A stretch of DNA of 64,000 nt from a virus: positions 9,078-73,077 of the IMG/VR virus record IMGVR_UViG_3300036832_001138; one strand, 5' to 3'. Shown here piece by piece: positions 1,243 through 58,410 of the stretch. The stretch's first letter is position 1. Each line of letters begins with the position of its first letter. Position numbers and translations under genes: made by a program. Below the pieces are notes generated by a model, which had not been told where the DNA came from, searched no databases, and saw only the letters and a list, made by a program, of their open reading frames with translations.

Positions 1243-1292
1243 GAGCCCCGGCAGTCACGCTCTGGAGTTCATGAATTCGATGGCCGGGGCTC
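1243..1292 (-). ncRNA. Solo TIGR-like guide unit
   Basis: + strand GAGCCCCGGCA-gtcacgctc-TGGAGTTCA-tgaattcga-TGGCCGGGGCTC: same 9/9/9 core and inverted stem as the array units; intergenic. Confidence 0.75.
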
Positions 1293-1343
1293 TAAGTCGC
1301 TTGGGAGCGACCTGACGACAAGTTTAGAAAAGATGGAGAGAGA

Positions 1344-4010: not shown

Positions 4011-4900
4011 CGCTTCGTCCGCGCATCCCGCTCGATCTCGGCATTCGGCGACCGCCGATCGTCAGTCCATTCTTTACCTATCCCTATCAAAATCCGGTGT
4101 ATCCGCCGGACATGCCGATTCCGGAGATGGAGCAAATCGCGCGCGACGCGGCAATGGCGCGCGCGCAGTCGCCGGGCGAGCGCGTTTGTTTGATCGATGA
4201 GGCGACGGCGCTCGAAAACCCGACACATACGCACCCTTACGATGAGTGCATGAATTATCGGCACGATCACGTCGTGGCGGATAGCGATCCCTGGACCTAC
4301 TGGCAACTGCTCGATCAGGTTGTCTCGAAGTTTATGGCGATCCCGCCGCCGCCGCCGCCGCCGCCGGTTGGCTGGAATTCTCGCGCCCGCGTCAACGAAA
4401 GCGGCATTTCGATCATGGATGGGACAAGCCCCGGCTGGCAGGGCTTCACGTGGGCGACCATGATCGGCGCGTCGCGGATTAAGCTCGGGCCCGGCAACCA
4501 AAGCCGCGTCACGATCCAAGGGCTTGCGCTGATCGGTCCGGTCTACCTTTGCCCGATCGCCGCACCGGCAAAACCGTTCATGGCGAACATCATTTATCCG
4601 CTAACCTTCAATGGCGGGCAGGGTTTAGTCGTGCCGCAACCGCCTGATTATGTGGCAACATCTGATCCGCTGCCGCACGGACTCGACCTTCCTAACGGTG
4701 TCATGATTTATTCGTATGTTCCGGACGTAGCTCCGGGGCAACCGACCGGGTATATCGGCCACCGCAACACCGAACAGGATTGGTACTCGCGATGGGCGTA
4801 TGGCAATTGGTCCGGGCATTATGATCTGTTCACGCCGACGGCGTGGGTTGCTGCCCCCTTTGGCTCGATTGGGGTGTTAGAGTTCGACGCGAACTACTGA
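4007..4900 (+). CDS. Hypothetical protein with poly-Pro linker, possibly virion-associated
   Basis: 297 aa; ATGA overlap with the upstream ORF; PPPPPPPP linker. Confidence 0.65.
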   Translation: MTLRPRIPLDLGIRRPPIVSPFFTYPYQNPVYPPDMPIPEMEQIARDAAMARAQSPGERVCLIDEATALENPTHTHPYDECMNYRHDHVVADSDPWTYWQLLDQVVSKFMAIPPPPPPPPVGWNSRARVNESGISIMDGTSPGWQGFTWATMIGASRIKLGPGNQSRVTIQGLALIGPVYLCPIAAPAKPFMANIIYPLTFNGGQGLVVPQPPDYVATSDPLPHGLDLPNGVMIYSYVPDVAPGQPTGYIGHRNTEQDWYSRWAYGNWSGHYDLFTPTAWVAAPFGSIGVLEFDANY

Positions 4901-4933
4901 GTCGAATCACAGTGGAAAAACGTAAAGGACCAA

Positions 4934-4963
4934 TTGCCAAACGCGGACAATTGGCCCTAGCTT
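4934..4963 (+). promoter_or_regulatory. Putative sigma70 promoter with degenerate operator
   Basis: TTGCCA-N18-TAGCTT enclosing GGACAATTGGCCC. Confidence 0.4.
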
Positions 4964-4998
4964 GATTGCTCTCACCTCAAACAGAAGGAGTCGTCATT

Positions 4999-5631
4999 AT
5001 GGTCGGAAGACTCGCCTACATCGTGTTTCTGGATTCCGGTGGTCCGGTCGATCCGGGCTTCGGCGTTCCCGGTTGGCCCGCGCATCCTATCGCACCGGGC
5101 GGGCCGCCTCCCGGCATCTGGCCCGGTCCCGGCTACCCGGCACATCCGATCGCGCCCGGTGGTTCTCCGCCCGGCATTTGGGGCGGTGCGCCAGCATGGC
5201 CCGCGCACCCGATCGCGCCCGGTGGTCGGCCTCCGGGTTTTTGGGGCGGGTCACCCGCATGGCCGAGCCATCCCATCGCGCCCGGTGGTTCGCCTCCGGG
5301 TATTTGGGGCGGCGTTCCGCCGAACTACATCGACATCGGGTTACCGGGCCAGCCGCCCGGCATTTGGGGCGGTGGCAATCAACCGTTCCCGACGCCGCCG
5401 ATCTACATTCCGATCCCGCCCGGCGAGCAGCCGCCCGAAGGCGGCAATGGGCTCTTGCCTAGTCATCCGATTGTGATTCCACCGTCGGAAGGCGTTCCCG
5501 AAGATAGCCAAAAATACTTGGTTCACGTTTACGTCGCGGGGGTTGGTGGAGTGTGGTTCTTGATCCAACCGCCGCCCATGCCGACGCATCCGTGGGTGCC
5601 GCCCGCTCCACCGGCAGGGCCGAAGGCGTAA
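4999..5631 (+). CDS. Pro/Gly-rich repeat protein
   Basis: GAAGGAG RBS before ATG 4999; four repeats of P(A/S)HPIAPGGxPPG(I/F)W. Confidence 0.75.
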   Translation: MVGRLAYIVFLDSGGPVDPGFGVPGWPAHPIAPGGPPPGIWPGPGYPAHPIAPGGSPPGIWGGAPAWPAHPIAPGGRPPGFWGGSPAWPSHPIAPGGSPPGIWGGVPPNYIDIGLPGQPPGIWGGGNQPFPTPPIYIPIPPGEQPPEGGNGLLPSHPIVIPPSEGVPEDSQKYLVHVYVAGVGGVWFLIQPPPMPTHPWVPPAPPAGPKA

Positions 5632-5786
5632 CGCGTGACATCTTTCGGTGACGGGCAACCCCCATCACCGTGAGCCCTCGACGTTAAGAGCGTCCGAACG
5701 TTCTGGAGAGCGCCCGAACGTTTCTGGCGTCGAGGGCAACCACGATGAGCGAAAAAGCGGCCCCGACGCTTAGAGCGCCGGGGCCT

Positions 5787-5838
5787 GTGATCCGGGCATC
5801 AGGTTATTGGAGTTCATAGGTCGCGTGGCCGGGATCAC
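5787..5838 (-). ncRNA. Solo TIGR-like guide unit
   Basis: + strand GTGATCCGGGCA-tcaggttat-TGGAGTTCA-taggtcgcg-TGGCCGGGATCAC; own stem sequence, identical core. Confidence 0.75.
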
Positions 5839-5893
5839 GCGATCAAGTCTTACAGGGACTTTGCCTAAAGGGTAGAGGCAGAATGAAATGGCG

Positions 5894-5924
5894 GCGGGCT
5901 GCTTCGGCGGCCCGCTTTGTTTTT
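5894..5924 (+). terminator. Intrinsic terminator just upstream of the endolysin
   Basis: GCGGGCTGC-TTCG-GCGGCCCGC-TTTGTTTTT. Confidence 0.65.
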
Positions 5925-5935
5925 GGGAGCACGCC

Positions 5936-7744
5936 ATGCGCAACAATCCGATCGCGATCTCGTCGGGCCACGGCAAGTTTATTCGCGGTGCGAGCGGATA
6001 TCTCGACGAAGTTGACGAAGCGCGTCGCGTCGTTGCGCGCGTTGCTGACATGCTCACCGAACGCGGCGTCACCGTGCGCGGCCCGTTCAATGACGATACG
6101 AGCACAACGCAAAACGAAAATCTCAATCGCATCGTTGACTGGCATAATTCGCAAGAGCGCGTGCTCGACGTGTCGGTGCATTTCAACGCGAATGAAACCA
6201 CGTCGTCGCCGATGGGCACCGAAGTGCTCTACGTCACGCAACAGATGCTCGCGGCCGAAGTCTCGACGGCGATCGCGGATGCGGGCGATTTCAAGGATCG
6301 CGGACCAAAAAAACGGACCGATCTCTACGTGCTCAATAACACCGACATGCCTTGTATCCTGCTCGAAGTGTGCTTCGTTGATAGCTCGGCGGACGCCGAA
6401 CTATACGAAGACAACTTCGATGCGATTTGCGACGCGATCGCACAATCGATCTGCGATGTGACGGGCGAAGACGCCGGGCCGCAGCCGCCGGATCGTCCGG
6501 ATCGCCCGGAGCGGCCGCCGCAACCGGAAGTGCCAACCGAGCGCCCCGAGCTAAGCAAGGGCGATGAGGGCCCGTGGGTCGAGAGCGTACAGCGAACACT
6601 CGGCCTGCCGCTCGACGGCGACTTCGGCAATACGACACAAGCGGGCGTGCAAGGCTATCAGCGCGCGGTCGGGCTTTCCGCCGATGGCAAGGTCGGCGAC
6701 ACGACATGGAAATATCTCGATGAGCTTGATCGCCGTATGGCGACCGGCGACGCCGGGATCAGCGATGAACTCGCGGCATCAATCGATGAGTTGGTCGCGG
6801 ACTCGGGCATCATAGAATATTTGTGGCCCGATCGCGGGCAAGCGCCGATGGGTTATTACAACGGCATTGCCAAGACCTACGCGTTAGCGATCAAGCGCTA
6901 TGCCAACGGCGACGGCGCGACCGCGATCATGGCGCAAGCCGAAACCGGCAGTGCCAGCCATGATGCGCTGACGTGGTATCACGATGAATTCGAAGCGCGC
7001 GGGATGCGCAACGATGCGAATAGCGTCGACACGCTGCGCCATCTGTTCGTGATGCTCACCGGGCTCGGGGTGCGCGAAAGCACCGGCAACCATTGGACCG
7101 GGCGCGACATGACCGCCGACAATGTGGAATCCGACACGTGCGAAGCTGGCGCGTGGCAATCGAGTTGGAATCTCAGCAATTGCTCGTCGGAAATCAGCAA
7201 GCTATTCGATGAGTTCAAGATCGATCCGAACGCGTTCCGCCCGAGCTACAGCGAAGGCGTGGTGCCCTATCCGGATGATCTCGACAACTACGGCGGCGGC
7301 GACGGTGCGACGTATCAATTCCTCGCGAAATATTCCCCGGCGTTTGCTGCATTGATGACCGGTGTCGGCATGCGGTTGCTCGGCGGCAGCGAGGGGCATT
7401 GGGGGCCGATTCGCCGCCGAGAGGTGACGATCGAGCCGCGCATCGATGAACTTCTCACCGAAGTCGATTTGCTGGTCGAGAATGAGGACATCGAGCCGCC
7501 GGGCCCCCGTCCTGATCCGCGGCCGCCGCAACCCGAGCCCGGCGCGGCTTACGTCGCCGTCAATGTCTCGGCGTTGGGTCGCGTGATCGTCAATATCGAG
7601 GAACCAACTAACGAACCATCGGACGAAGTGCCGGAGGTGACGATCAGCGTGCGCAGTAAAGGTGCGGTCGCAGTGAGCGTGAACCACGGCACGCCCGACG
7701 AGATCGCCGATGCGTTGCGCGTTGGTAAGGTGAGACACGTGTGA
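5936..7744 (+). CDS. Endolysin: N-acetylmuramoyl-L-alanine amidase (Amidase_3) + peptidoglycan-binding domain + C-terminal domain
   Basis: 'ISSGHG..E..VSVHFNA..GTEV..ILLEVCFVD' amidase motifs; 'LSKGDEG..VQRTLG..DGDFG..T..YQRAVGLSADGKVG' PG_binding; GGGAG RBS before ATG 5936. Confidence 0.9.
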   Translation: MRNNPIAISSGHGKFIRGASGYLDEVDEARRVVARVADMLTERGVTVRGPFNDDTSTTQNENLNRIVDWHNSQERVLDVSVHFNANETTSSPMGTEVLYVTQQMLAAEVSTAIADAGDFKDRGPKKRTDLYVLNNTDMPCILLEVCFVDSSADAELYEDNFDAICDAIAQSICDVTGEDAGPQPPDRPDRPERPPQPEVPTERPELSKGDEGPWVESVQRTLGLPLDGDFGNTTQAGVQGYQRAVGLSADGKVGDTTWKYLDELDRRMATGDAGISDELAASIDELVADSGIIEYLWPDRGQAPMGYYNGIAKTYALAIKRYANGDGATAIMAQAETGSASHDALTWYHDEFEARGMRNDANSVDTLRHLFVMLTGLGVRESTGNHWTGRDMTADNVESDTCEAGAWQSSWNLSNCSSEISKLFDEFKIDPNAFRPSYSEGVVPYPDDLDNYGGGDGATYQFLAKYSPAFAALMTGVGMRLLGGSEGHWGPIRRREVTIEPRIDELLTEVDLLVENEDIEPPGPRPDPRPPQPEPGAAYVAVNVSALGRVIVNIEEPTNEPSDEVPEVTISVRSKGAVAVSVNHGTPDEIADALRVGKVRHV

Positions 7745-41626: not shown

Positions 41627-43771
41627 GTGATGCTGGAGATCGAGCCCATAGCTCGCGCATTGCTCGGCGAGCCCAACGCGAAGCTATCTTCGCAATTCGA
41701 ATGGCGATATGGCAACCGCGGCTCGCTTTCAATCGATCTGCGCAAGAATGTTTGGCACGACCACGAAACCGACGAGAGCGGCGGATGCCTCGATCTGATC
41801 ACTCACAAGACCGGACTCGACGGCCCGGAGCGTGCGCAATGGATGCACGATCGCGGCATCGGCAATGGATACGATCAAACGACCAAGCGCCCGGAGATCG
41901 TGGCGACGTTTCCCTATAATGACGAATACGGCAAGGAGCTTTTTCAGGTTGTCAAATTCGAGCCGAAGGATTTCCGCCAGCGGCGGCAAGACAAGACCGC
42001 GCCCGGCGGCTATCGCTGGTCGGTCAAGGGCGTGCGGCGAATTCCCTATCGCCTCGACGATTTGTCAGAAAAAATCGAAGGGCGCATTTTCATCGCCGAA
42101 GGCGAAAAAGACGTTGATACGCTTTGGCGGCACAACATTCCAGCGACGTGCAATGCCGGGGGCGCAGGCAAGTGGCATCCCGAACTCACCGAATTTTTCC
42201 GCAACAAGACCGACAACGTAGTTGTACTGCCCGATCGTGATCCGCCGAAGAAAGACCCAAAGACCGGCGCGGAAATGAAGCACGAGGATGGGCGGTTCAT
42301 TCGGCCGGGGCAAGACCACGCACAAGAGATCGCGGCAGAGATGCATCGCATTGGCGTACCCGTGCGCGTGGTCGAGCTTTGGCGCGATTGGCCGGAGATG
42401 CCCGAGAAGGGTGACGTAACCGATTGGTTCGATCATGGCGGCACGGCCGACCGGCTACAGAAAATTGTTCAAGACGCCCCATTTTGGAAACCGGGCGATC
42501 AAGCTGACGACGGCGCGCTGCTCAAGCTCCAATCCGTGTTTCCGATCAACGAGCGCGCACTCCCAACGCGCAATTGGATCATGCCAGGACTTTTAATGCG
42601 GCGTCAGGTAACCGTGTTGGTAGCACCAAGTGGTGTGGGCAAAAGTTTGCTCACGCTGCAATTAGGTATCGCCTGTGCACAAGGCCGAAAATGGAGCGGT
42701 TGGACTCCGCGCCGTACATTCAACGTGCTGTTTATCAACTCGGAAGATGACTATTTCGAAATCTGCCGCAGGCTCGCCGCGGCCACGCAAAGGATGCGAC
42801 TCGGCGCACATAACGAATTCGAAATTGATCAGCTAGGAATCGCCGATCGCTTCCATATCGCCGATGCCGAGCAGAGCGGTACTGTTGTTGCCAAGTTTGA
42901 CGCACGAACCAAAACGCTCGTGAGCACACCGTTGCACGATCAACTGATCGAAACAATAAAAGCCAACCAAATCGATGTGGTCTTCGTCGATCCGTTTGCC
43001 GAGACTTTCGAGGGCGACGAAAATTCCAATAGCGAATTGAAGTGGGCGGGCGCGTTATGGCGCAAGGTTGCGCGGCAAACCGATGCTGCGGTTTGTCTCG
43101 TGCATCATACAAAAAAATATGCAAGCGGGCTGCAAGGTGACGTTGATGCGGCGCGCGGTGCTGGTGCGCTGATCGGAATCGCGCGCATTGTCTCGACGCT
43201 ATTTCCGATGACGCCGAAGGAAGCGGAAGCGATGGGCGTCAAGCTCGGAGATAGGTCGCTCTATTTGCGATACGATGATGCGAAAGCAAATCTGAATTTG
43301 GTTTCTCCGTTTGCGCGCTGGTTTCAAAAGACCACGATCACGCTCGACAATGCATGCGGCGATCCTAACAGCGACGACTTTGTGCCCGGCGACGAAGTGG
43401 GCGTGCTCAATCCATGGAAGCCTGAAACGAAAGACGTGCACGAAGCTCAGATCATCGGATTTTTCAAGGCGATCGATCGCGGCATGGTCGACGATGCTGA
43501 TCAACCGACCGGCGAATTCTGGACCTTCAAAAAGGGCAAGAGCGGCGCGAGATACGTCGGCTACCTCGCGCAAAGCTTTTTCAAATGCGATGCGCTCTCG
43601 CAAGCCGAAGCGCTGATCCGCAAGTGGGAAGGCACAAGATTGAAAACGATTCAATTCAAGGCGCGGAACGGTCACCTTCGTGATCGCGTCGTGAGCGAGC
43701 TTTCCCCCGACTTCCCGCGCCCCGAGGCCGCGCCGATCGAGCCGATGGCACAGCTTTTTCCTGCCGAATAG
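41627..43771 (+). CDS. Primase-helicase (TOPRIM + RepA/AAA_25)
   Basis: 'IFIAEGEKD', 'LPDRD', 'KGDVTDW'; Walker A APSGVGKS; 'VFVDP', 'LVHHTKK', 'ARGAGA'. Confidence 0.9.
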   Translation: MMLEIEPIARALLGEPNAKLSSQFEWRYGNRGSLSIDLRKNVWHDHETDESGGCLDLITHKTGLDGPERAQWMHDRGIGNGYDQTTKRPEIVATFPYNDEYGKELFQVVKFEPKDFRQRRQDKTAPGGYRWSVKGVRRIPYRLDDLSEKIEGRIFIAEGEKDVDTLWRHNIPATCNAGGAGKWHPELTEFFRNKTDNVVVLPDRDPPKKDPKTGAEMKHEDGRFIRPGQDHAQEIAAEMHRIGVPVRVVELWRDWPEMPEKGDVTDWFDHGGTADRLQKIVQDAPFWKPGDQADDGALLKLQSVFPINERALPTRNWIMPGLLMRRQVTVLVAPSGVGKSLLTLQLGIACAQGRKWSGWTPRRTFNVLFINSEDDYFEICRRLAAATQRMRLGAHNEFEIDQLGIADRFHIADAEQSGTVVAKFDARTKTLVSTPLHDQLIETIKANQIDVVFVDPFAETFEGDENSNSELKWAGALWRKVARQTDAAVCLVHHTKKYASGLQGDVDAARGAGALIGIARIVSTLFPMTPKEAEAMGVKLGDRSLYLRYDDAKANLNLVSPFARWFQKTTITLDNACGDPNSDDFVPGDEVGVLNPWKPETKDVHEAQIIGFFKAIDRGMVDDADQPTGEFWTFKKGKSGARYVGYLAQSFFKCDALSQAEALIRKWEGTRLKTIQFKARNGHLRDRVVSELSPDFPRPEAAPIEPMAQLFPAE

Positions 43772-44570
43772 GTTCGTCAACGGCGACGCGACGCCATTCG
43801 CTCAGCAAATCTTTGAGAAATTGTTTCATCGTGATGCGCAGCGCATCTTTGCGCCGATGGCCGTCGGTCCAATCCGGGTGCGCTTTCTTGGTGTAGGCGC
43901 GGCGCTTAGCATAGATTTCGCCATAGTGGCCCTTTGGCTTGCCTTCGCCGCCGGTTTTCTTTGCGCCAATCCACTGCGCGTTCACGAGCCACGTCGCGAT
44001 CTGTGCCATCAGCGCATAGCGCTCCCCGGAAAAAGGATTTTCGATCCATTCGTCGGCGCTCAGCGCGCGCGGTCGCCACGTCGTGCGTTTCCACGTTGAT
44101 CCGGCGTGGCCGTCGTATGGTGCGAAGCCGAGCCGCTTCCATAACTTGCTCGGCTTGGAATAATTCGAGAGATCGCCAGCTTCGGCGACGATGGTCGCGA
44201 GCCCGAGCGCGCCTGCGCCGTGAATCTTTTCGATCCATGGATAAACCGGTAGCTCGCACGCGGCAGCCTCCATTCGCTTTTCCGTGGCAGCACGCCGTTC
44301 ATCAGCGGGCGCACGCGCAGGATCGCATACCTGCAACACTTCTTCCGCCAGCGGATGCGCTTCGCCCTCGCGAATGCGCTTGATAATTTCGCGCACCTCG
44401 CGGTTCGATTTCTCGCGCTCGGCATCGCTGGCGTTAGGATTCCATTTGGTGCCATTGATACGAATGAAGCTTTCGAGCGAGCGGTCAAGTTTCTGTTGCA
44501 CTTTCATTGCGAACCGTCGCTTTCGATGCAGGCCGCGGATCAATTCGATGGTTTCGGATTGTTGGGTCAT
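43656..44570 (-). CDS. TasA-like Nop-domain RNA-guided DNA-binding protein (IS110 C-terminal-like fold, no nuclease)
   Basis: Coiled-coil N-terminus, then 'LPVYPWIEKIHGAGALGLATIVAEAGDLSNYSKPSKLWKRLGFAP' and 'YGEIYAKRR..HRRKDALRITMKQFLKDL'; no DEDD/RuvC or HNH motif; directly downstream of the dual-spacer array. Confidence 0.85.
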   Translation of the reverse strand: MTQQSETIELIRGLHRKRRFAMKVQQKLDRSLESFIRINGTKWNPNASDAEREKSNREVREIIKRIREGEAHPLAEEVLQVCDPARAPADERRAATEKRMEAAACELPVYPWIEKIHGAGALGLATIVAEAGDLSNYSKPSKLWKRLGFAPYDGHAGSTWKRTTWRPRALSADEWIENPFSGERYALMAQIATWLVNAQWIGAKKTGGEGKPKGHYGEIYAKRRAYTKKAHPDWTDGHRRKDALRITMKQFLKDLLSEWRRVAVDEPIRQEKAVPSARSARPRGAGSRGKARSRRDHEGDRSAP

Positions 44571-44599
44571 TTGTTGTGGTTCCTATTTGTGAGTTAGGT

Positions 44600-45137
44600 G
44601 CGAGCCCGGCAACCGGTCAATGGAGTTCACGATCGCCTTGGCCGGGCTCGCGGCGGTCGCAAGCGGCGTGTGGAGTTCACAGACGTGATGGCGACCGCAT
44701 TGGTGGATTAGGGTGCGAGCCCGGCACTCGCGATATGGAGTTCAAGTGCTGGTAGGCCGGGCTCGCGGCGGTCGCAACGCAACGTTGGAGTTCACATGAT
44801 CTTTGGCGACCGCATTCGAGAATAGAGCGCCCGGCATGCCGTTTGTGGAGTTCAATCACGTGCTGGCCGGGCGCGGCGGTCGCACGGAGGCGCTGGAGTT
44901 CACGATCTACATGGCGACCGCATCGGTGGATTGGGTGCGAGCCCGGCATTGGCCGACAGGAGTTCAACCCTTTCCTGGCCGGGCTCGCTACGGTCGCATT
45001 GCGCGCGTGGAGTTCACTCAGATCGTGGCGACCGCAAAAGGTGCGCCCGGCAGCGTTGTCATGGAGCACACAAGTGTTTTGGCCGGGCGCGGCGGTCGCA
45101 ACCGCTCCGTGGAGTTCACTACTGTTTTGGCGACCGC
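44600..45137 (-). ncRNA. TIGR-like stem-loop guide array 1 (10 units)
   Basis: 5 pairs of GCG(AG)CCCGGCA-N9-TGGAGTTCA-N9-TGGCCGGG(CT)CGC and GCGGTCGCA-N9-TGGAGTTCA-N9-TGGCGACCGC. Confidence 0.9.
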
Positions 45138-45149
45138 ATTTCGTGAATA

Positions 45150-45821
45150 TCATGACCGTGCATCGCCCTCGATTTCTGACGGCTTGCGCGCGGCGGCGAT
45201 CAGATCGCTTGCGACCTTCGCCGAGCCGTCGCGGATCACTTCGACGGCTTTGATCCTAGCGTCGTTATAGTATTGCACGGCAATCTTGAGCGGTATCACC
45301 TTCTCGACTTCGCCGTGCGGATCGGCGGCGACGCAATAGTCATTCAACCGCCGGATTGCGATCGCGTCGACTGCATCATCATAACCGCGCTGTAGGAAAT
45401 CTCCGGCCGTGTTTGCCAGATTTTCCGCGATGGCGCGCAATTCGTGTACGCGCAGCTTCCCAAGCGGACCATAACCACGGATTTTGCGGTTGAATATCTC
45501 GGCGGCGACGGCTTGCCCGGCGGCGATCGCTCCCGCCTTTTGCGCGTCGGTGGGTGTGCGGAGCAGACTGCTCCGGCGATGCTTGCCCTCGCGGCGGCGC
45601 GCGGCGGGCTTCGGGTGCGCGATCCGCGGTAGCTTCGTTTCGCTCGACGGCGACGACAAGCGCGACAGGTAATCAGCAACGAGCGCGATAAGCAGCGGCC
45701 GCTTCGCATTGTCCATCAACGCGCGTGCCAGCGTCGGTGCGGCTTTGTTCACACTATTGTTGCTGGCGCGCAGCGCTTCGATCGCGGCGTCGCGGAGCTT
45801 ATCGAGATCAGAGGCGGCCAT
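45150..45821 (-). CDS. Unknown 223-aa protein between the two guide arrays
   Basis: GAAGGA RBS; Ala-rich helical sequence with a basic central stretch; co-oriented with the arrays and the Tas-like gene. Confidence 0.75.
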   Translation of the reverse strand: MAASDLDKLRDAAIEALRASNNSVNKAAPTLARALMDNAKRPLLIALVADYLSRLSSPSSETKLPRIAHPKPAARRREGKHRRSSLLRTPTDAQKAGAIAAGQAVAAEIFNRKIRGYGPLGKLRVHELRAIAENLANTAGDFLQRGYDDAVDAIAIRRLNDYCVAADPHGEVEKVIPLKIAVQYYNDARIKAVEVIRDGSAKVASDLIAAARKPSEIEGDARS

Positions 45822-45852
45822 GTGTTTGGTGTCCTTCTCGTTTGAAAAAAGT

Positions 45853-47044
45853 GCGAGCCCGGCAAGTGGTGACTGGAGTCCACGTCGGATCAGGCCGGGC
45901 TCGCGGCGGTCGCAGAATTGTTTTGGAGTTCACCAAGGCACTGGCGACCGCATTCGAGATAAGAGCGCCCGGCAGGCTACATTTGGAGTTCATAGGGCCA
46001 ATGGCCGGGCGCGGCGGTCGCAGCGCAAGATTGGAGTTCACGTGATCTTTGGCGACCGCATTCGAGGGAAAGAGTGCGCCCGGCAGAGCTTCACAGGAGT
46101 TCACGCCGAATTTGGCCGGGCGCGGCGGTCGCATCTCGTCGTTGGAGTTCAATCGTGTGCTGGCGACCGCATTTCGAATAGGTGCGCCCGGCAGAAGCCG
46201 GTTGGAGTTCAGGCCAGCATTGGCCGGGCGCGGCGGTCGCACGACACCAATGGAGTGCAAGGGAGAACAGGCGACCGCATTCGAGATGGGTGCGCCCGGC
46301 AGGTCATCGTTGGAGTTCACGTGCTTGATGGCCGGGCGCGGCGGTCGCAATCTCTGGATGGAGTTCATACAAATGCTGGCGACCGCATTCGGGTGAAAGA
46401 GAGCGCCCGGCATTTCCATTTTGGAGTTCAACTGATCGCTGGCCGGGCGCGGCGGTCGCATTCCAAACCTGGAGTTCATCAGCTTACTGGCGACCGCAGT
46501 CGGTTTGATAGGTGCGCCCGGCAAGGCGATGTTGGAGTTCATATTGCCGGTGGCCGGGCGCGGCGGTCGCAGATAGGTGCAGGAGTTCACACCCGAATTG
46601 GCGACCGCGTTGGTGATAGGTGCGCCCGGCAATGATTGCTTGGAGTTCATCATGAAGGTGGCCGGGCGCGGCGGTCGCAGCGTGGCGTTGGAGTTCACGG
46701 GATCAGTGGCGACCGCGTTCGTTGTGATAGGTGCGCCCGGCAGACAGCGATCGGAGTGCACGTTCACCAGGGCCGGGCGCGGCGGTCGCAGTGGCAGTAT
46801 GGAGTTCATTCGGCACCTGGCGACCGCATTCGAGAATAGAGCGCCCGGCACGCCTCCCTTGGAGATCAATGCCGAAATGGCCGGGCGCGGCGGTCGCATC
46901 CTCGATCTGGAGTGCATCAGTGGCATGGCGACCGCGTTCGTGAAAAGGTGCGCCCGGCAGACGAGTTCTGGAGTTCACGACTACGATGGCCGGGCGCGGC
47001 GGTCGCACCTTGAACTTGGAGTTCAACCACGTCGTGGCGACCGC
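45853..47044 (-). ncRNA. TIGR-like stem-loop guide array 2 (22 units)
   Basis: 11 pairs, period 108-111 nt; all spacers exactly 9 nt and different from each other. Confidence 0.9.
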
Positions 47045-47052
47045 ATGCCAAA

Positions 47053-47082
47053 CATATACGGGCCATCGGCCTAACGTGTCAA
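47053..47082 (-). promoter_or_regulatory. Sigma70 promoter of the array operon, with operator
   Basis: Minus strand TTGACA-N18-TATATG ending 8 nt before the first unit; spacer contains AGGCCGATGGCCC. Confidence 0.75.
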
Positions 47083-47097
47083 TGTGACGAAAATCAC

Positions 47098-47126
47098 AAA
47101 AAAAGAGCCGCCCCGAAGGGCGGCCC
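47098..47126 (-). terminator. Intrinsic terminator insulating the array promoter
   Basis: Minus strand GGGCCGCCC-TTCG-GGGCGGCTC-TTTTTTT. Confidence 0.85.
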
Positions 47127-47131
47127 GAGCT

Positions 47132-47791
47132 TTAGCTTAGATCGAGCGTGCGGCCTGCGATCGTGGGGGCCGCGAGTTGTTTCGCTTCGCCGAGATCGAG
47201 CCGTCGCTTCGCCATTCGCGAGGCTTTGATCGCGTCGCGCTGGCGTAGCGATTTCTCGTAATACTTCTTTCGTAACTTGAGCTTGCGCAGTTTCGTCTTA
47301 GCGAGCTTTTCCTTTCGCTCCCACGCGGCGATCAACTCAACCGTGCGCGCGTAGCGTGCTTGTTGCCGGTCCGTCGGCGGCTTCGCCTTCGCGCGGGCGA
47401 GCTTTCCGTCGAGCCATCCCGACTTGACCACGTACTCCGCGAGCCTGCGCTCGATATACGCATGTTGCGGAGCGTGCGGCCCGAGCCGATTGCGGTCATA
47501 AAGGCGATTGAATGCCCAATGACTTATATCGTGCACGATCCCTTTCCATCCGCTGAAACTCGGATGGCGATAGGCCGGGTTGACGTAGAACACGCCGCCA
47601 CGAGTCCAAGTGCGCCGGTTGCCCGACGTTGGTTTGAACTTTCCGCGGAACTTGCGTTTCGGCGAGTTCGCCGGACCGAGCGAGAGGGCGAGTCTGACGA
47701 GCTTGCGCGCGCCAGCGATCGCCTCCTGCGGTGTGGGGGCCCGCGCATCCGCGGGCCATGCGGCATTGACGTTTTGATAGTTCGTTGGCAT
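47132..47791 (-). CDS. Basic hypothetical protein
   Basis: GAGGA RBS; 'VHDISH..H' HExxH-like remnant; C-terminal 'GRTLDLS'. Confidence 0.65.
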   Translation of the reverse strand: MPTNYQNVNAAWPADARAPTPQEAIAGARKLVRLALSLGPANSPKRKFRGKFKPTSGNRRTWTRGGVFYVNPAYRHPSFSGWKGIVHDISHWAFNRLYDRNRLGPHAPQHAYIERRLAEYVVKSGWLDGKLARAKAKPPTDRQQARYARTVELIAAWERKEKLAKTKLRKLKLRKKYYEKSLRQRDAIKASRMAKRRLDLGEAKQLAAPTIAGRTLDLS

Positions 47792-58315: not shown

Positions 58316-58410
58316 GCGCCCGGCAGTGCTTGTCTGGAGTTCACGTCGAAGCTGGCCGGGCGCGGCGGTCGCAAAGGGTTATTGGAGTTCATCGGATGCT
58401 TGGCGACCGC
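58316..58410 (-). ncRNA. Orphan TIGR-like unit pair
   Basis: Complete two-unit module identical in repeats to array 2, with new spacers gtgcttgtc/cgtcgaagc and aagggttat/tcggatgct; intergenic. Confidence 0.9.

Follow-up and report, generated by a model that had tools for sequence, protein, structure and literature searches.

A stem-loop TIGR-TasA array built of two-hairpin modules in a soil phage genome

[quoted passage not shown] Two aspects of these systems are stated there as open: the maturation of stem-loop tigRNAs (Xu 2026), and the building of the arrays together with the link between TIGR and the bridge RNAs of IS110 (Faure 2025). Along with Guan 2026 (bioRxiv 10.64898/2026.08.11.744272), the texts of these publications form the set to which the present locus was compared.

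The region analysed here (44600-47044) lies in a stretch of 64 kb, hereafter the window, of a 73-kb phage genome from soil. It is almost certainly a stem-loop TIGR array of a phage-encoded nuclease-less TasA, and a stem-loop TIGR array adjoining a nuclease-less Tas is a known kind of system. The pairing of its guide hairpins appears to be new, no such pairs being described in the passages of text compared from Faure 2025, Xu 2026 and Guan 2026. The overall explanation that we favour, with moderate confidence, is a TIGR-TasA array made of selected two-helix modules with differing stems, the precursor of which would be cut once per module.

Identity of the array and its adjoining genes

In the 397,754 nt of the phage genome and 29 related loci, the tas strand carries 310 copies of the box motif CCA-N9-TG-N4-CCA-N9-TG and the other strand 3. 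At least six contiguous base pairs flank 287 of these 310 matches, with 51 distinct stem cores, and when the 3' arm was slid by 1-3 nt as a control, only 0-1 of the 310 kept at least six pairs; the signal of motif and stem together exceeds chance. The tandem units, each with two spacers of about 9 nt, CCA/UG boxes and a loop of about 9 nt, stand beside a gene for a Tas protein of the Nop and coiled-coil type, as in TIGR-Tas systems; the paired flanks of the 287 units and covariation at 15 of 17 stem pairs correspond to the stem-loop subtype, and a Nop core free of any fused HNH or RuvC domain corresponds to TasA. For the array itself we infer its transcription, the strand transcribed and the processing of the RNA; the one sequencing run listed with this DNA is a DNA run and a possible source of the contig.

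The tasA gene (43656-44570, minus strand) encodes a 304-aa protein with a coiled coil and a Nop-like RNA-binding domain and without nuclease domain. Pfam returned a match to Transposase_20 over residues 113-165 (E 5e-4, under the cut-off) and none to DEDD_Tnp_IS110 or to HNH or RuvC families, nuclease families being considered at E <= 1. A profile of 42 homologues matches PDB 9mty (TaTasR) with an E-value of 1.1e-4. The AF2 model of the protein (pLDDT 84.4) begins directly with long helices, and its best 10 Foldseek matches in the PDB are without exception chains of TasR or TasH, with recombinases of the IS110 family in synaptic complexes coming next (E 0.03-0.07).

An open reading frame of 223 aa (ORF223, 45150-45821, minus strand) splits the region into two arrays. 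Its homologues adjoin tas in 9 of the 29 related loci; it has no Pfam or PHROG family, the Atlas gave no usable lead, and it shows no similarity to the ORF found at the same position in Rhizobium phage RHph_X2_25. Just before array 2, an intrinsic-terminator-like hairpin of 9 pairs with a run of 7 T (47105-47126, minus strand) ends the upstream ORF at 47132-47791. The leader that separates this hairpin from array 2 (47045-47104, minus strand) contains a perfect TTGACA hexamer with TATATG about 18 nt further on, possibly a promoter, and a consensus promoter scan lists no minus-strand promoter in this leader.

Several other identities were rejected. IS110 elements encode a DEDD RuvC-like domain and a Tnp domain with a catalytic serine and carry a single bridge RNA in a non-coding end, whereas the present locus lacks DEDD_Tnp_IS110 and has not one RNA but 18 modules in arrays. 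CRISPR arrays, which usually stand beside cas genes, alternate one repeat of 25-36 nt with a single spacer of about 30 nt; here each unit has two 9-nt spacers and three conserved elements, and Pfam found no Cas family among the five array-adjacent ORFs scanned. REP-like DNA elements were also discarded as the identity of the array, as were coding repeats, the long ORFs over the array (308 and 372 aa) being read-through of the repeats. No Rfam family matches the array, and three weak matches (E 0.3-0.9) fall on the terminator.

Organisation of the modules in the phage and its relatives

The phage genome contains 37 hairpin units, consisting of 18 pairs and 1 unit placed behind a guide-less hairpin, and all 37 fit the pattern CCA-N9-UG-N4-CCA-N9-UG, variants of the boxes being few. 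On the minus strand, a unit comprises a stem, CCA, a 9-nt spacer, UG-AACU-CCA, a second 9-nt spacer, UG and the other arm of the stem, and the order within a pair is invariant: a unit with a GCGGUCG stem, 1 nt, then a unit with a GCGCCCGG stem. The first unit measures 46 nt, with a GCGGUCG(C)/(G)CGACCGC stem, and the second 48 nt, with a GCGCCCGG(C)/(G)CCGGGCGC stem, boxes and loop being identical between the two stem classes. The original prediction of fixed alternating pairs with a 1-nt joint is confirmed, as the 32 units of 44600-47044 form 16 pairs that alternate without exception. The joint nucleotide is C in 15 of these 16 pairs and UA in the remaining one, and each pair is followed by a linker of 13-16 nt, with a single exception of 8 nt.

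Array 1 (44600-45137, minus strand), directly upstream of tasA on the RNA strand, holds 5 modules, that is 10 guide units. Four of them reach 91-99.7 bits with the covariance model R1, and the fifth (44937-45035) is not among the matches listed. Array 2 (45853-47044, minus strand) holds 11 modules, or 22 guide units, which score 92-107 bits. The extension of the stem on both arms together in four copies, also part of the prediction, could be located: two bases are added on each side (GCGAGCCCGG ... CCGGGCUCGC) at 45904-45853, 44988-44937, 44766-44715 and 44651-44600. Far from tasA, the orphan pair of the original prediction is confirmed as an intact module of two guide units (58316-58410, minus strand; R1, 104.2 bits), which folds into two hairpins (z -4.08), and a second orphan pair lies outside the window, at 2828-2907 of the genome. 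A variant module (1243-1313, minus strand; R1, 34.9 bits, E 1.4e-4; z of the fold -3.22) associates a guide-less hairpin of 8 bp, AGGUCGCU-CCCA-AGCGACUU (1313-1294), with a guide unit with stem GAGCCCCGG (1292-1243) at a distance of 1 nt.

Two-helix modules were retrieved in 28 of the 29 related loci; their joints range from -2 to +4 nt, most often 1, and their linkers from 5 to 16 nt, most often 13. In five of these loci (L018, L020, L026, L027 and L029; 46-55% Tas identity) the spacing is kept with unrelated stems, and in L027, L029, L024 and L026 each module has stems of its own with a joint still of -2 to +4 nt, so the joint has survived a long divergence. Some distant relatives even have a different stem in every unit and retain the module, and orphans distant from the arrays are modules too. 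Of 177 modules, 156 have a second stem that exceeds the first in length, 17 have two stems of equal length and 4 have a shorter second stem; the longer second stem is also seen in 50 of the 62 modules with non-canonical stems. The covariance-model search for related arrays, suggested as a check of the prediction, gave 202 doublet matches at E <= 0.01 in 29 sources; L030 and L036, both outgroups, gave no match, and L035 gave two that were partial and marginal. The arrays of two more distant Tas relatives, used as outgroups, are made of evenly spaced single units, separated by 6-7 nt in Rhizobium phage RHph_X2_25 and by 15-33 nt in the prophage-like contig G304.

The selection on RNA structure that had been postulated from the extended stems is supported: beyond the 51 stem cores, both sides change at 15 of the 17 stem pairs, pairing is kept in 99.4% of the cells, and 0 of 500 shuffles come up to these values, in an alignment that was fitted to the model and leans towards structure. 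A MAFFT alignment of the diverse modules misplaces the variable stems and was left out of these counts.

That the pair is the unit, as initially suggested, agrees with the recurrence of the module in 28 of 29 loci despite differing stems and with its context in six phage genomes of 90% completeness or more, where 142 of 152 units abut another helix. These comprise 106 in guide-guide pairs, 19 that abut a unit-like hairpin, 14 that follow a guide-less hairpin and 3 that precede a small hairpin; the 10 others are solitary, and an abutting helix is therefore not absolutely required. A minimum total helix length was considered as an explanation and dropped, since the stems of solitary units are not clearly longer (mean 9.2 bp, n = 19). 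Of 65 apparently lone units, 9 have a guide-less hairpin that ends 0-1 nt before them, versus 322 of 20,000 random positions, and the guide-less hairpins in first position have stable loops of 4-5 nt (GCGA, GCAA, GUGA, CGCAA) and covarying stems.

An ancestral two-stem pair could also have been duplicated in tandem with no function attached to its alternation and joint, the units acting and maturing singly. Stems and some linkers are indeed near-identical within and between arrays 1 and 2, with linker UCUAUUCUCGAAU present in both, TRF detects higher-order periods of 219 and 327 nt, and RNA-seq of another TasA array yielded single units (Faure 2025). Such a neutral origin of the pairs seems nevertheless improbable to us, given that the joint persists where stems are module-specific, that the short-then-long asymmetry extends to the non-canonical modules, that the first position can be taken by guide-less hairpins with stable loops and covarying stems, and that orphans far from the arrays are modules as well. 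Judged from the loci compared, the conserved feature of this TasA clade is the module rather than the two particular stem sequences, and the module is probably under selection.

Folding and the predicted need for two different stems

Folding in silico gave the native stems a mean own-stem probability of 0.63 in array 2 and 0.51 in array 1. When all stems were replaced by one of the two (Q or P), this probability dropped to 0.13 and 0.05 (all Q) or to 0.12 and 0.02 (all P) in arrays 2 and 1, respectively, and a blockwise order (QQQ..PPP) lowered it to 0.13 and 0.11. With the order of the two stems swapped it stayed close to that of native folding (0.62 and 0.48), and folding therefore does not explain why the short stem comes first. 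Single modules fold into two hairpins (z -3.2 to -4.4), while the native full-length arrays fold imperfectly in this equilibrium model, the MFE structure completing the own stems of 15 of 22 units in array 2 and 4 of 10 in array 1.

The proposal that alternating stems stop neighbours from mispairing is thus supported in silico, homogenised stems falling to 0.02-0.13. According to these models, identical stems at so short a joint would pair across the joint and the linker and leave their own guide loops unclosed, and for this reason the two stems would have to differ. We lean towards the view that the different stems serve correct folding. The strict alternation of two stems in this phage and its nearer relatives could then be explained by this requirement combined with homogenisation of the scaffold within arrays.

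The stem sequences might instead be tags that define two classes of guides and direct the units to a different protein, timing or stability. Both stem sequences are letter-identical in phages with only 57-73% Tas identity, and a conserved accessory ORF stands between the arrays, both points in favour of such tags. It is a highly improbable reading all the same: distant relatives keep the module and lose the stem sequences, some of them having all stems different, the two classes do not differ in boxes or loop, a profile search of five related phage genomes found one tas gene per genome, and no more than 9 of the 29 loci yielded the accessory ORF.

RNA maturation, guide function and comparison with known systems

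The linkers, which the original prediction had described as variable and pyrimidine-rich, are composed clade-wide of 62% pyrimidine and 7% G and begin with ACCU-like motifs. In the outgroups each unit has such an ACC/CU-rich linker behind it, here only each second unit, which suggests one processing site per pair; from this spacing, a single cut per module would be made in the precursor. Of 106 linkers, only 45 contain the CUU motif that Xu 2026 assigns to processing. Each module runs from a unit with the shorter stem over a joint of about 1 nt to a unit with the longer stem and closes with a G-poor ACC/CU-rich linker. Its primary product would be an RNA of about 95-100 nt with four spacers in two guide cassettes, or with one cassette beside a helper hairpin, and might then be split at the joint. 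In the Peromyscus gut array, the one TasA stem-loop array studied by RNA-seq, the processed RNA is a single stem-loop unit (Faure 2025), and the tigRNA of this system is given as 46 nt (Guan 2026), which is the size of the first unit here and favours single units as the mature form. That the module itself is the mature RNA is rather doubtful.

On the model of TasA systems already characterised, a TasA dimer bound to a single unit would base-pair spacers A and B with opposite strands of an 18-bp site and so block transcription at that site. The four spacers of a module are not related to one another, in the same or reverse-complement orientation, above shuffled pairs. Targets were searched with a composite 18-mer per guide, with gaps of 0-2. 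In the phage genome and in the 29 loci both spacer orders were used, and in 674 kb of this and related phage DNA with six near-complete phage genomes the query was spacer A with the reverse complement of spacer B, the other order serving as control; this order was chosen because of the 8-nt 3' overhang stated in the text of Faure 2025. The best match in the phage's own genome had 2 mismatches and was not above controls, the 29 loci gave 3 matches with 1 mismatch versus 0-9 in controls, and the 674 kb gave 2 with 1 mismatch versus 2-6 in controls. This null result has no bearing on activity.

A bolder possibility, raised as tethering in the original prediction, is that the mature RNA is the module, its stacked stems holding two TasA dimers that bind two DNA sites, with cooperative binding or looping as the outcome, in the manner of the two-loop IS110 bridge RNA. 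The single linker motif per module and the 1-nt joint, which leaves scant room for a single-strand-specific RNase, are compatible with it, as are the narrow range of combined stem length (15 bp in 78 of 148 modules, 14-23 overall), the position of IS110-family synaptic complexes as the next fold matches after TasR and TasH, and an insertion of 6 residues in a conserved W/R-rich loop that is common to the Tas proteins of the module clade and absent in both outgroups, only two in number. Conversely, the first position can be filled by a guide-less hairpin, so a module does not need a second guide, the spacers of paired units are unrelated, neither a recombinase nor a nuclease domain is present in the protein, and the published stem-loop tigRNAs are single units (Faure 2025). 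Both the bivalent guide and the looping or cooperativity that it would confer are in our opinion unlikely, and no greater likelihood is given to its evolutionary extension, in which a double tigRNA of about 95 nt with coaxially stacked stems and two TasA dimers would be a living intermediate towards IS110 bridge RNAs.

The paired arrangement may bear on how guides are made and used, and a phage TasA clade with tight hairpin pairs, one linker per pair and an occasional guide-less helper offers a handle on maturation, raising the questions of whether there is one cut per pair and whether the abutting helix is needed. Should the pair be the working RNA, it would represent a natural two-guide RNA, of importance for the evolutionary model and for the engineering of multiplexed or cooperative TasA repressors. 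Such bimodal arrays would also escape an annotation that describes each array by its median linker length and the conservation of its stems.

Among the described systems, the closest are the TasA stem-loop arrays of the Peromyscus leucopus gut, Bifidobacterium longum and Minisyncoccota. They share with the present locus a nuclease-less Tas made of a coiled coil and Nop, tandem hairpins with two 9-nt spacers, CCA/UG boxes, a 9-nt loop and a 46-nt unit, as well as a phage origin and arrays located upstream, downstream or split by a gene. Unlike in these published arrays, the hairpins here come in pairs with a joint of about 1 nt, each pair having a single linker and a shorter stem followed by a longer one, and in this phage two conserved stem sequences strictly alternate. 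The dual-repeat TIGR arrays (TaTasR, SpTasH) are similar in their two spacers per guide, CCA/UG boxes and symmetric Tas dimer, and two short conserved elements alternate along them too. There, however, what alternates is the edge repeat and the loop repeat within one 36-nt guide that lacks long stems, whereas here the stems alternate from one complete guide to the next. The IS110 bridge RNAs (IS621, ISCro4) resemble the module in that one RNA carries two guide-bearing loops, each with split guides, and their protein has a related RNA-binding domain, as indicated by the fold matches at E 0.03-0.07. They differ in being one per element, within an insertion sequence, with internal loops and a DEDD/serine recombinase, whereas the present locus has 18 modules in arrays, hairpin loops and neither a recombinase domain nor insertion-sequence ends.

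A stem-loop TIGR-TasA array in two blocks

On the minus strand, every unit follows the order stem, CCA, N9, UG, AACU, CCA, N9, UG, stem. These motifs are exactly the same as those of the TIGR arrays described in the text of Faure et al. 2025 (PMC12045711), where CCA is box C and UG box D, the boxes flank two 9-nt spacers pairing with both strands of an 18-bp DNA target, and a second, stem-loop type of array is reported beside some Tas proteins. Directly downstream of the array on the same strand, tasA (43656-44570, minus strand) encodes a protein of 304 aa. Its profile, built from 42 homologues, matches TaTasR (PDB 9mty, E 1.1e-4), and in a fold search of the PDB with its AlphaFold model (pLDDT 84.4), TasR or TasH chains take all of the first ten places, IS110-family recombinases coming next. 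Because of these profile and fold matches and of the lack of any nuclease domain detected by Pfam, the product is TasA. The text of Xu et al. 2026 (bioRxiv 10.64898/2026.09.09.750476) already describes TasA proteins as RNA-guided transcriptional repressors and counts 2,559 stem-loop arrays, so the present system, a stem-loop TIGR-TasA array, is of a known kind. No Rfam family corresponds to it.

The region 44600-47044 contains 32 hairpin units in two blocks on the minus strand: array 1 (44600-45137), with 10 units forming five pairs, and array 2 (45853-47044), with 22 units forming 11 pairs, separated by a 223-aa ORF (45150-45821, minus strand). The original prediction of two alternating stem types arranged in pairs was confirmed in every detail by reading 44300-47400 and parsing it, the alternation being strict over the 32 units. 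The extension of both stem arms it had noticed in four copies was found as two bases in four second units (GCGAGCCCGG ... CCGGGCUCGC), and the orphan it considered an intact pair parsed as such (58316-58410, minus strand, two units). Outside the window, at 2828-2907 of the genome (window -6257 to -6163) and ~50 kb away from tasA, there is another orphan pair, whose canonical stems are joined by C. A further unit (1243-1292, minus strand) is separated by 1 nt from a preceding guide-less hairpin of 8 bp and a 4-nt loop (together 1243-1313); the stem of this hairpin (GGUCGC) is similar to the one usual in first units. The whole genome, a single record of 73,077 nt of which positions 9078-73077 make up the window, holds 37 units (39 regex matches minus one duplicate and one false match), i.e. 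18 pairs and one unit behind a guide-less hairpin, and the within-pair joint is C in 17 of the 18 pairs and UA in the other.

With tblastn, homologues of the 223-aa ORF sharing 25-52% identity were detected beside tas in 9 of 29 related loci; Pfam, PHROG and Atlas gave no lead for this protein, which may be an accessory of this TasA clade. On the plus strand, a 714-aa primase/helicase-like ORF (41627-43771; AAA_25, E 2.6e-35) converges on tasA, their 3' ends overlapping by 116 nt. A tandem repeat detected by TRF at 5110-5312 (63-nt period, 2-3 copies, 78-81% matches) is unrelated to the array.

Stem structure and conservation of the pair

The phage genome and 29 related loci (28 from viruses, the other a contig from a Xanthobacteraceae MAG), 397,754 nt altogether, were searched for the box motif irrespective of any stem, giving 310 matches on the tas strand and 3 on the other. 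At least six contiguous flanking pairs are present in 287 of the 310, as against 0-1 when the 3' arm was slid by 1-3 nt and 1402 of 6200 with shuffled partners, the latter value being inflated by the two dominant stems; 51 distinct stem cores were counted among these units. The covariance-model search for related arrays proposed in the original prediction did retrieve them: a pair model built from 17 window pairs yielded, at E <= 0.01, 202 matches spread over 29 sources, and 193 of these lie on the tas strand. In the alignment of the best 150 of these 202, which is fitted to the model and hence biased towards the structure, pairing holds in 99.4% of cells (22-40% in slid controls), and both sides change at 15 of 17 stem pairs (163 cells), values reached by none of 500 covariation shuffles. 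To judge from these sequence comparisons, the stems are real RNA structure.

Tas homologues are numerous, with 391 at E <= 1e-3 in 90% clusters and 3,229 representatives at the same threshold in a 50% library. Paired units were found in 28 of the 29 related loci, the remaining one (L017) yielding no units. Spacing between neighbouring units is bimodal: joints range from -2 to +4 nt (mode 1, 126 cases) and linkers from 5 to 16 nt (mode 13). Where 55-68 nt separate two units, the search pattern missed one in between. The same two stem sequences are kept down to ~57% Tas identity. At 46-55% identity, stems are unrelated (loci L018, L020, L026, L027, L029 and L024), and in some relatives differ in every unit, the joint being kept; the pair is conserved while the stem sequences are not. 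Among 177 pairs from 26 non-redundant sources, 156 have a second stem longer than the first, 17 have two stems of equal length and in 4 the second is the shorter one; the longer stem also comes second in 50 of the 62 pairs without canonical stems. For this clade, the comparative evidence argues against the rival view that the alternation is a by-product of duplication.

Six phage genomes, whose completeness is estimated at 90% or more in their records, contain 152 units with stems of 7 bp or longer: guide-guide pairs hold 106 of them, 19 abut a unit-like hairpin with degenerate boxes, 14 are preceded by a small guide-less hairpin, 3 are followed by a small hairpin, and 10 are solitary. Of 65 units that look solitary, 9 have a guide-less hairpin ending 0-1 nt upstream, compared with 322 of 20,000 positions chosen at random; these hairpins have loops of 4-5 nt (GCGA, GCAA, GUGA, CGCAA and others). 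Among related phages, this hairpin-plus-unit form is common in G406, where it accounts for 9 of 32 units, and also occurs in G405 (3 of 9).

Pairs are absent from the stem-loop arrays of two Tas relatives that are more divergent. In Rhizobium phage RHph_X2_25 (MW960032), whose Tas-like protein shows 26% identity over 54% of the query, units are 6-7 nt apart, box D is CG and the pair model has no match; in G304, a 218-kb bacterial contig (Tas profile E 6.9e-35), gaps are 15-33 nt and the model has only two marginal partial matches. Since pairs are absent from these two outgroups, the two-helix module appears to be derived and peculiar to one TasA clade. Tas residues 154-170 (~44060-44110, minus strand) form a conserved W/R-rich loop of low model confidence, in which a six-residue insertion (AGSTWK) is common to the pair-bearing clade; both outgroup proteins lack it and carry an insertion after the next helix instead. 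The RHph_X2_25 array (4424-6628), unannotated, surrounds the distant Tas homologue QWY83253.1, annotated as "hypothetical protein", and three units fall inside the 5' part of this CDS; the phage is isolated and its host known (Sinorhizobium americanum), so it could be used for experiments. On contig G304, two copies of a Tas homologue that do not differ in search score or length lie 63 kb apart (C74:50850-51704 and 113956-114810), perhaps because a prophage was duplicated or is present in tandem.

Hardly any spacer recurs between non-redundant loci, and no relation was found among the four spacers of a pair. No natural target was found in the phage genome, the 29 loci, or 674 kb including six whole phage genomes. 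The one sequencing run listed with this DNA is a DNA run. First units 46059-46014 and 44813-44768 (both minus strand), from different arrays, have 14 of 18 spacer letters in common, as do second unit 46997-46950 and L026:930-981, from a locus whose Tas is only 48% identical. No pair was as close in a swapped-spacer control, which points to duplicated guides or common targets.

Folding and processing of the module

Native and altered array RNAs were folded with ViennaRNA, the measure being the mean probability of a unit's own stem. This probability, 0.63 in array 2 and 0.51 in array 1, collapsed when all stems were made of one type, Q (0.13 and 0.05), or of the other, P (0.12 and 0.02), or all Q then all P (0.13 and 0.11). 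The idea that alternating stems stop neighbours from mispairing is thereby supported: in this folding model adjacent stems must differ, and alternation of two stems is enough. Swapping the order within pairs had little effect (0.62 and 0.48). Folding does not account for the fixed order or for the tight joint. Single pairs fold as two adjacent hairpins (z -3.2 to -4.4).

Linkers are G-poor (7% G) and mostly start with ACCU, ACCC, UCUC or alike; the same type stands behind every unit in both outgroups, so that the sequences indicate one linker per pair in the module clade versus one per unit in the outgroups. According to the text of Xu et al. 2026, the boundary at which stem-loop tigRNAs are processed lies in the linker, at a CUU motif by the base of the stem; CUU is present in 45 of 106 linkers of the module clade. 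A single-strand-specific RNase would have little space to act at a joint of 1 nt. From this pattern we infer that the precursor would be cut once per pair. Two reports count against it: in the text of Faure et al. 2025, RNA-seq of the Peromyscus TasA array gives single stem-loop units, and the Peromyscus tigRNA, given as 46 nt in the text of Guan et al. 2026 (bioRxiv 10.64898/2026.08.11.744272), matches the first unit here exactly in length. The best-supported mechanism is that the module is under selection, its two stems differing so that each guide hairpin would fold alone although only 1 nt joins it to its neighbour. Primary processing probably also takes place by module, and the module may, with low probability, work as a two-guide RNA.

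Comparison with described TIGR-Tas systems

The maturation of stem-loop arrays, the origin of spacers and the natural targets are named as open questions in the text of Faure et al. 2025 and Xu et al. 2026. Paired units are not described in the examined text of the three primary TIGR-Tas papers; Xu et al. 2026 there summarise linkers as a per-array median and stems as a conserved core. As far as this literature text was checked, the conserved two-helix module represents an undescribed variant.
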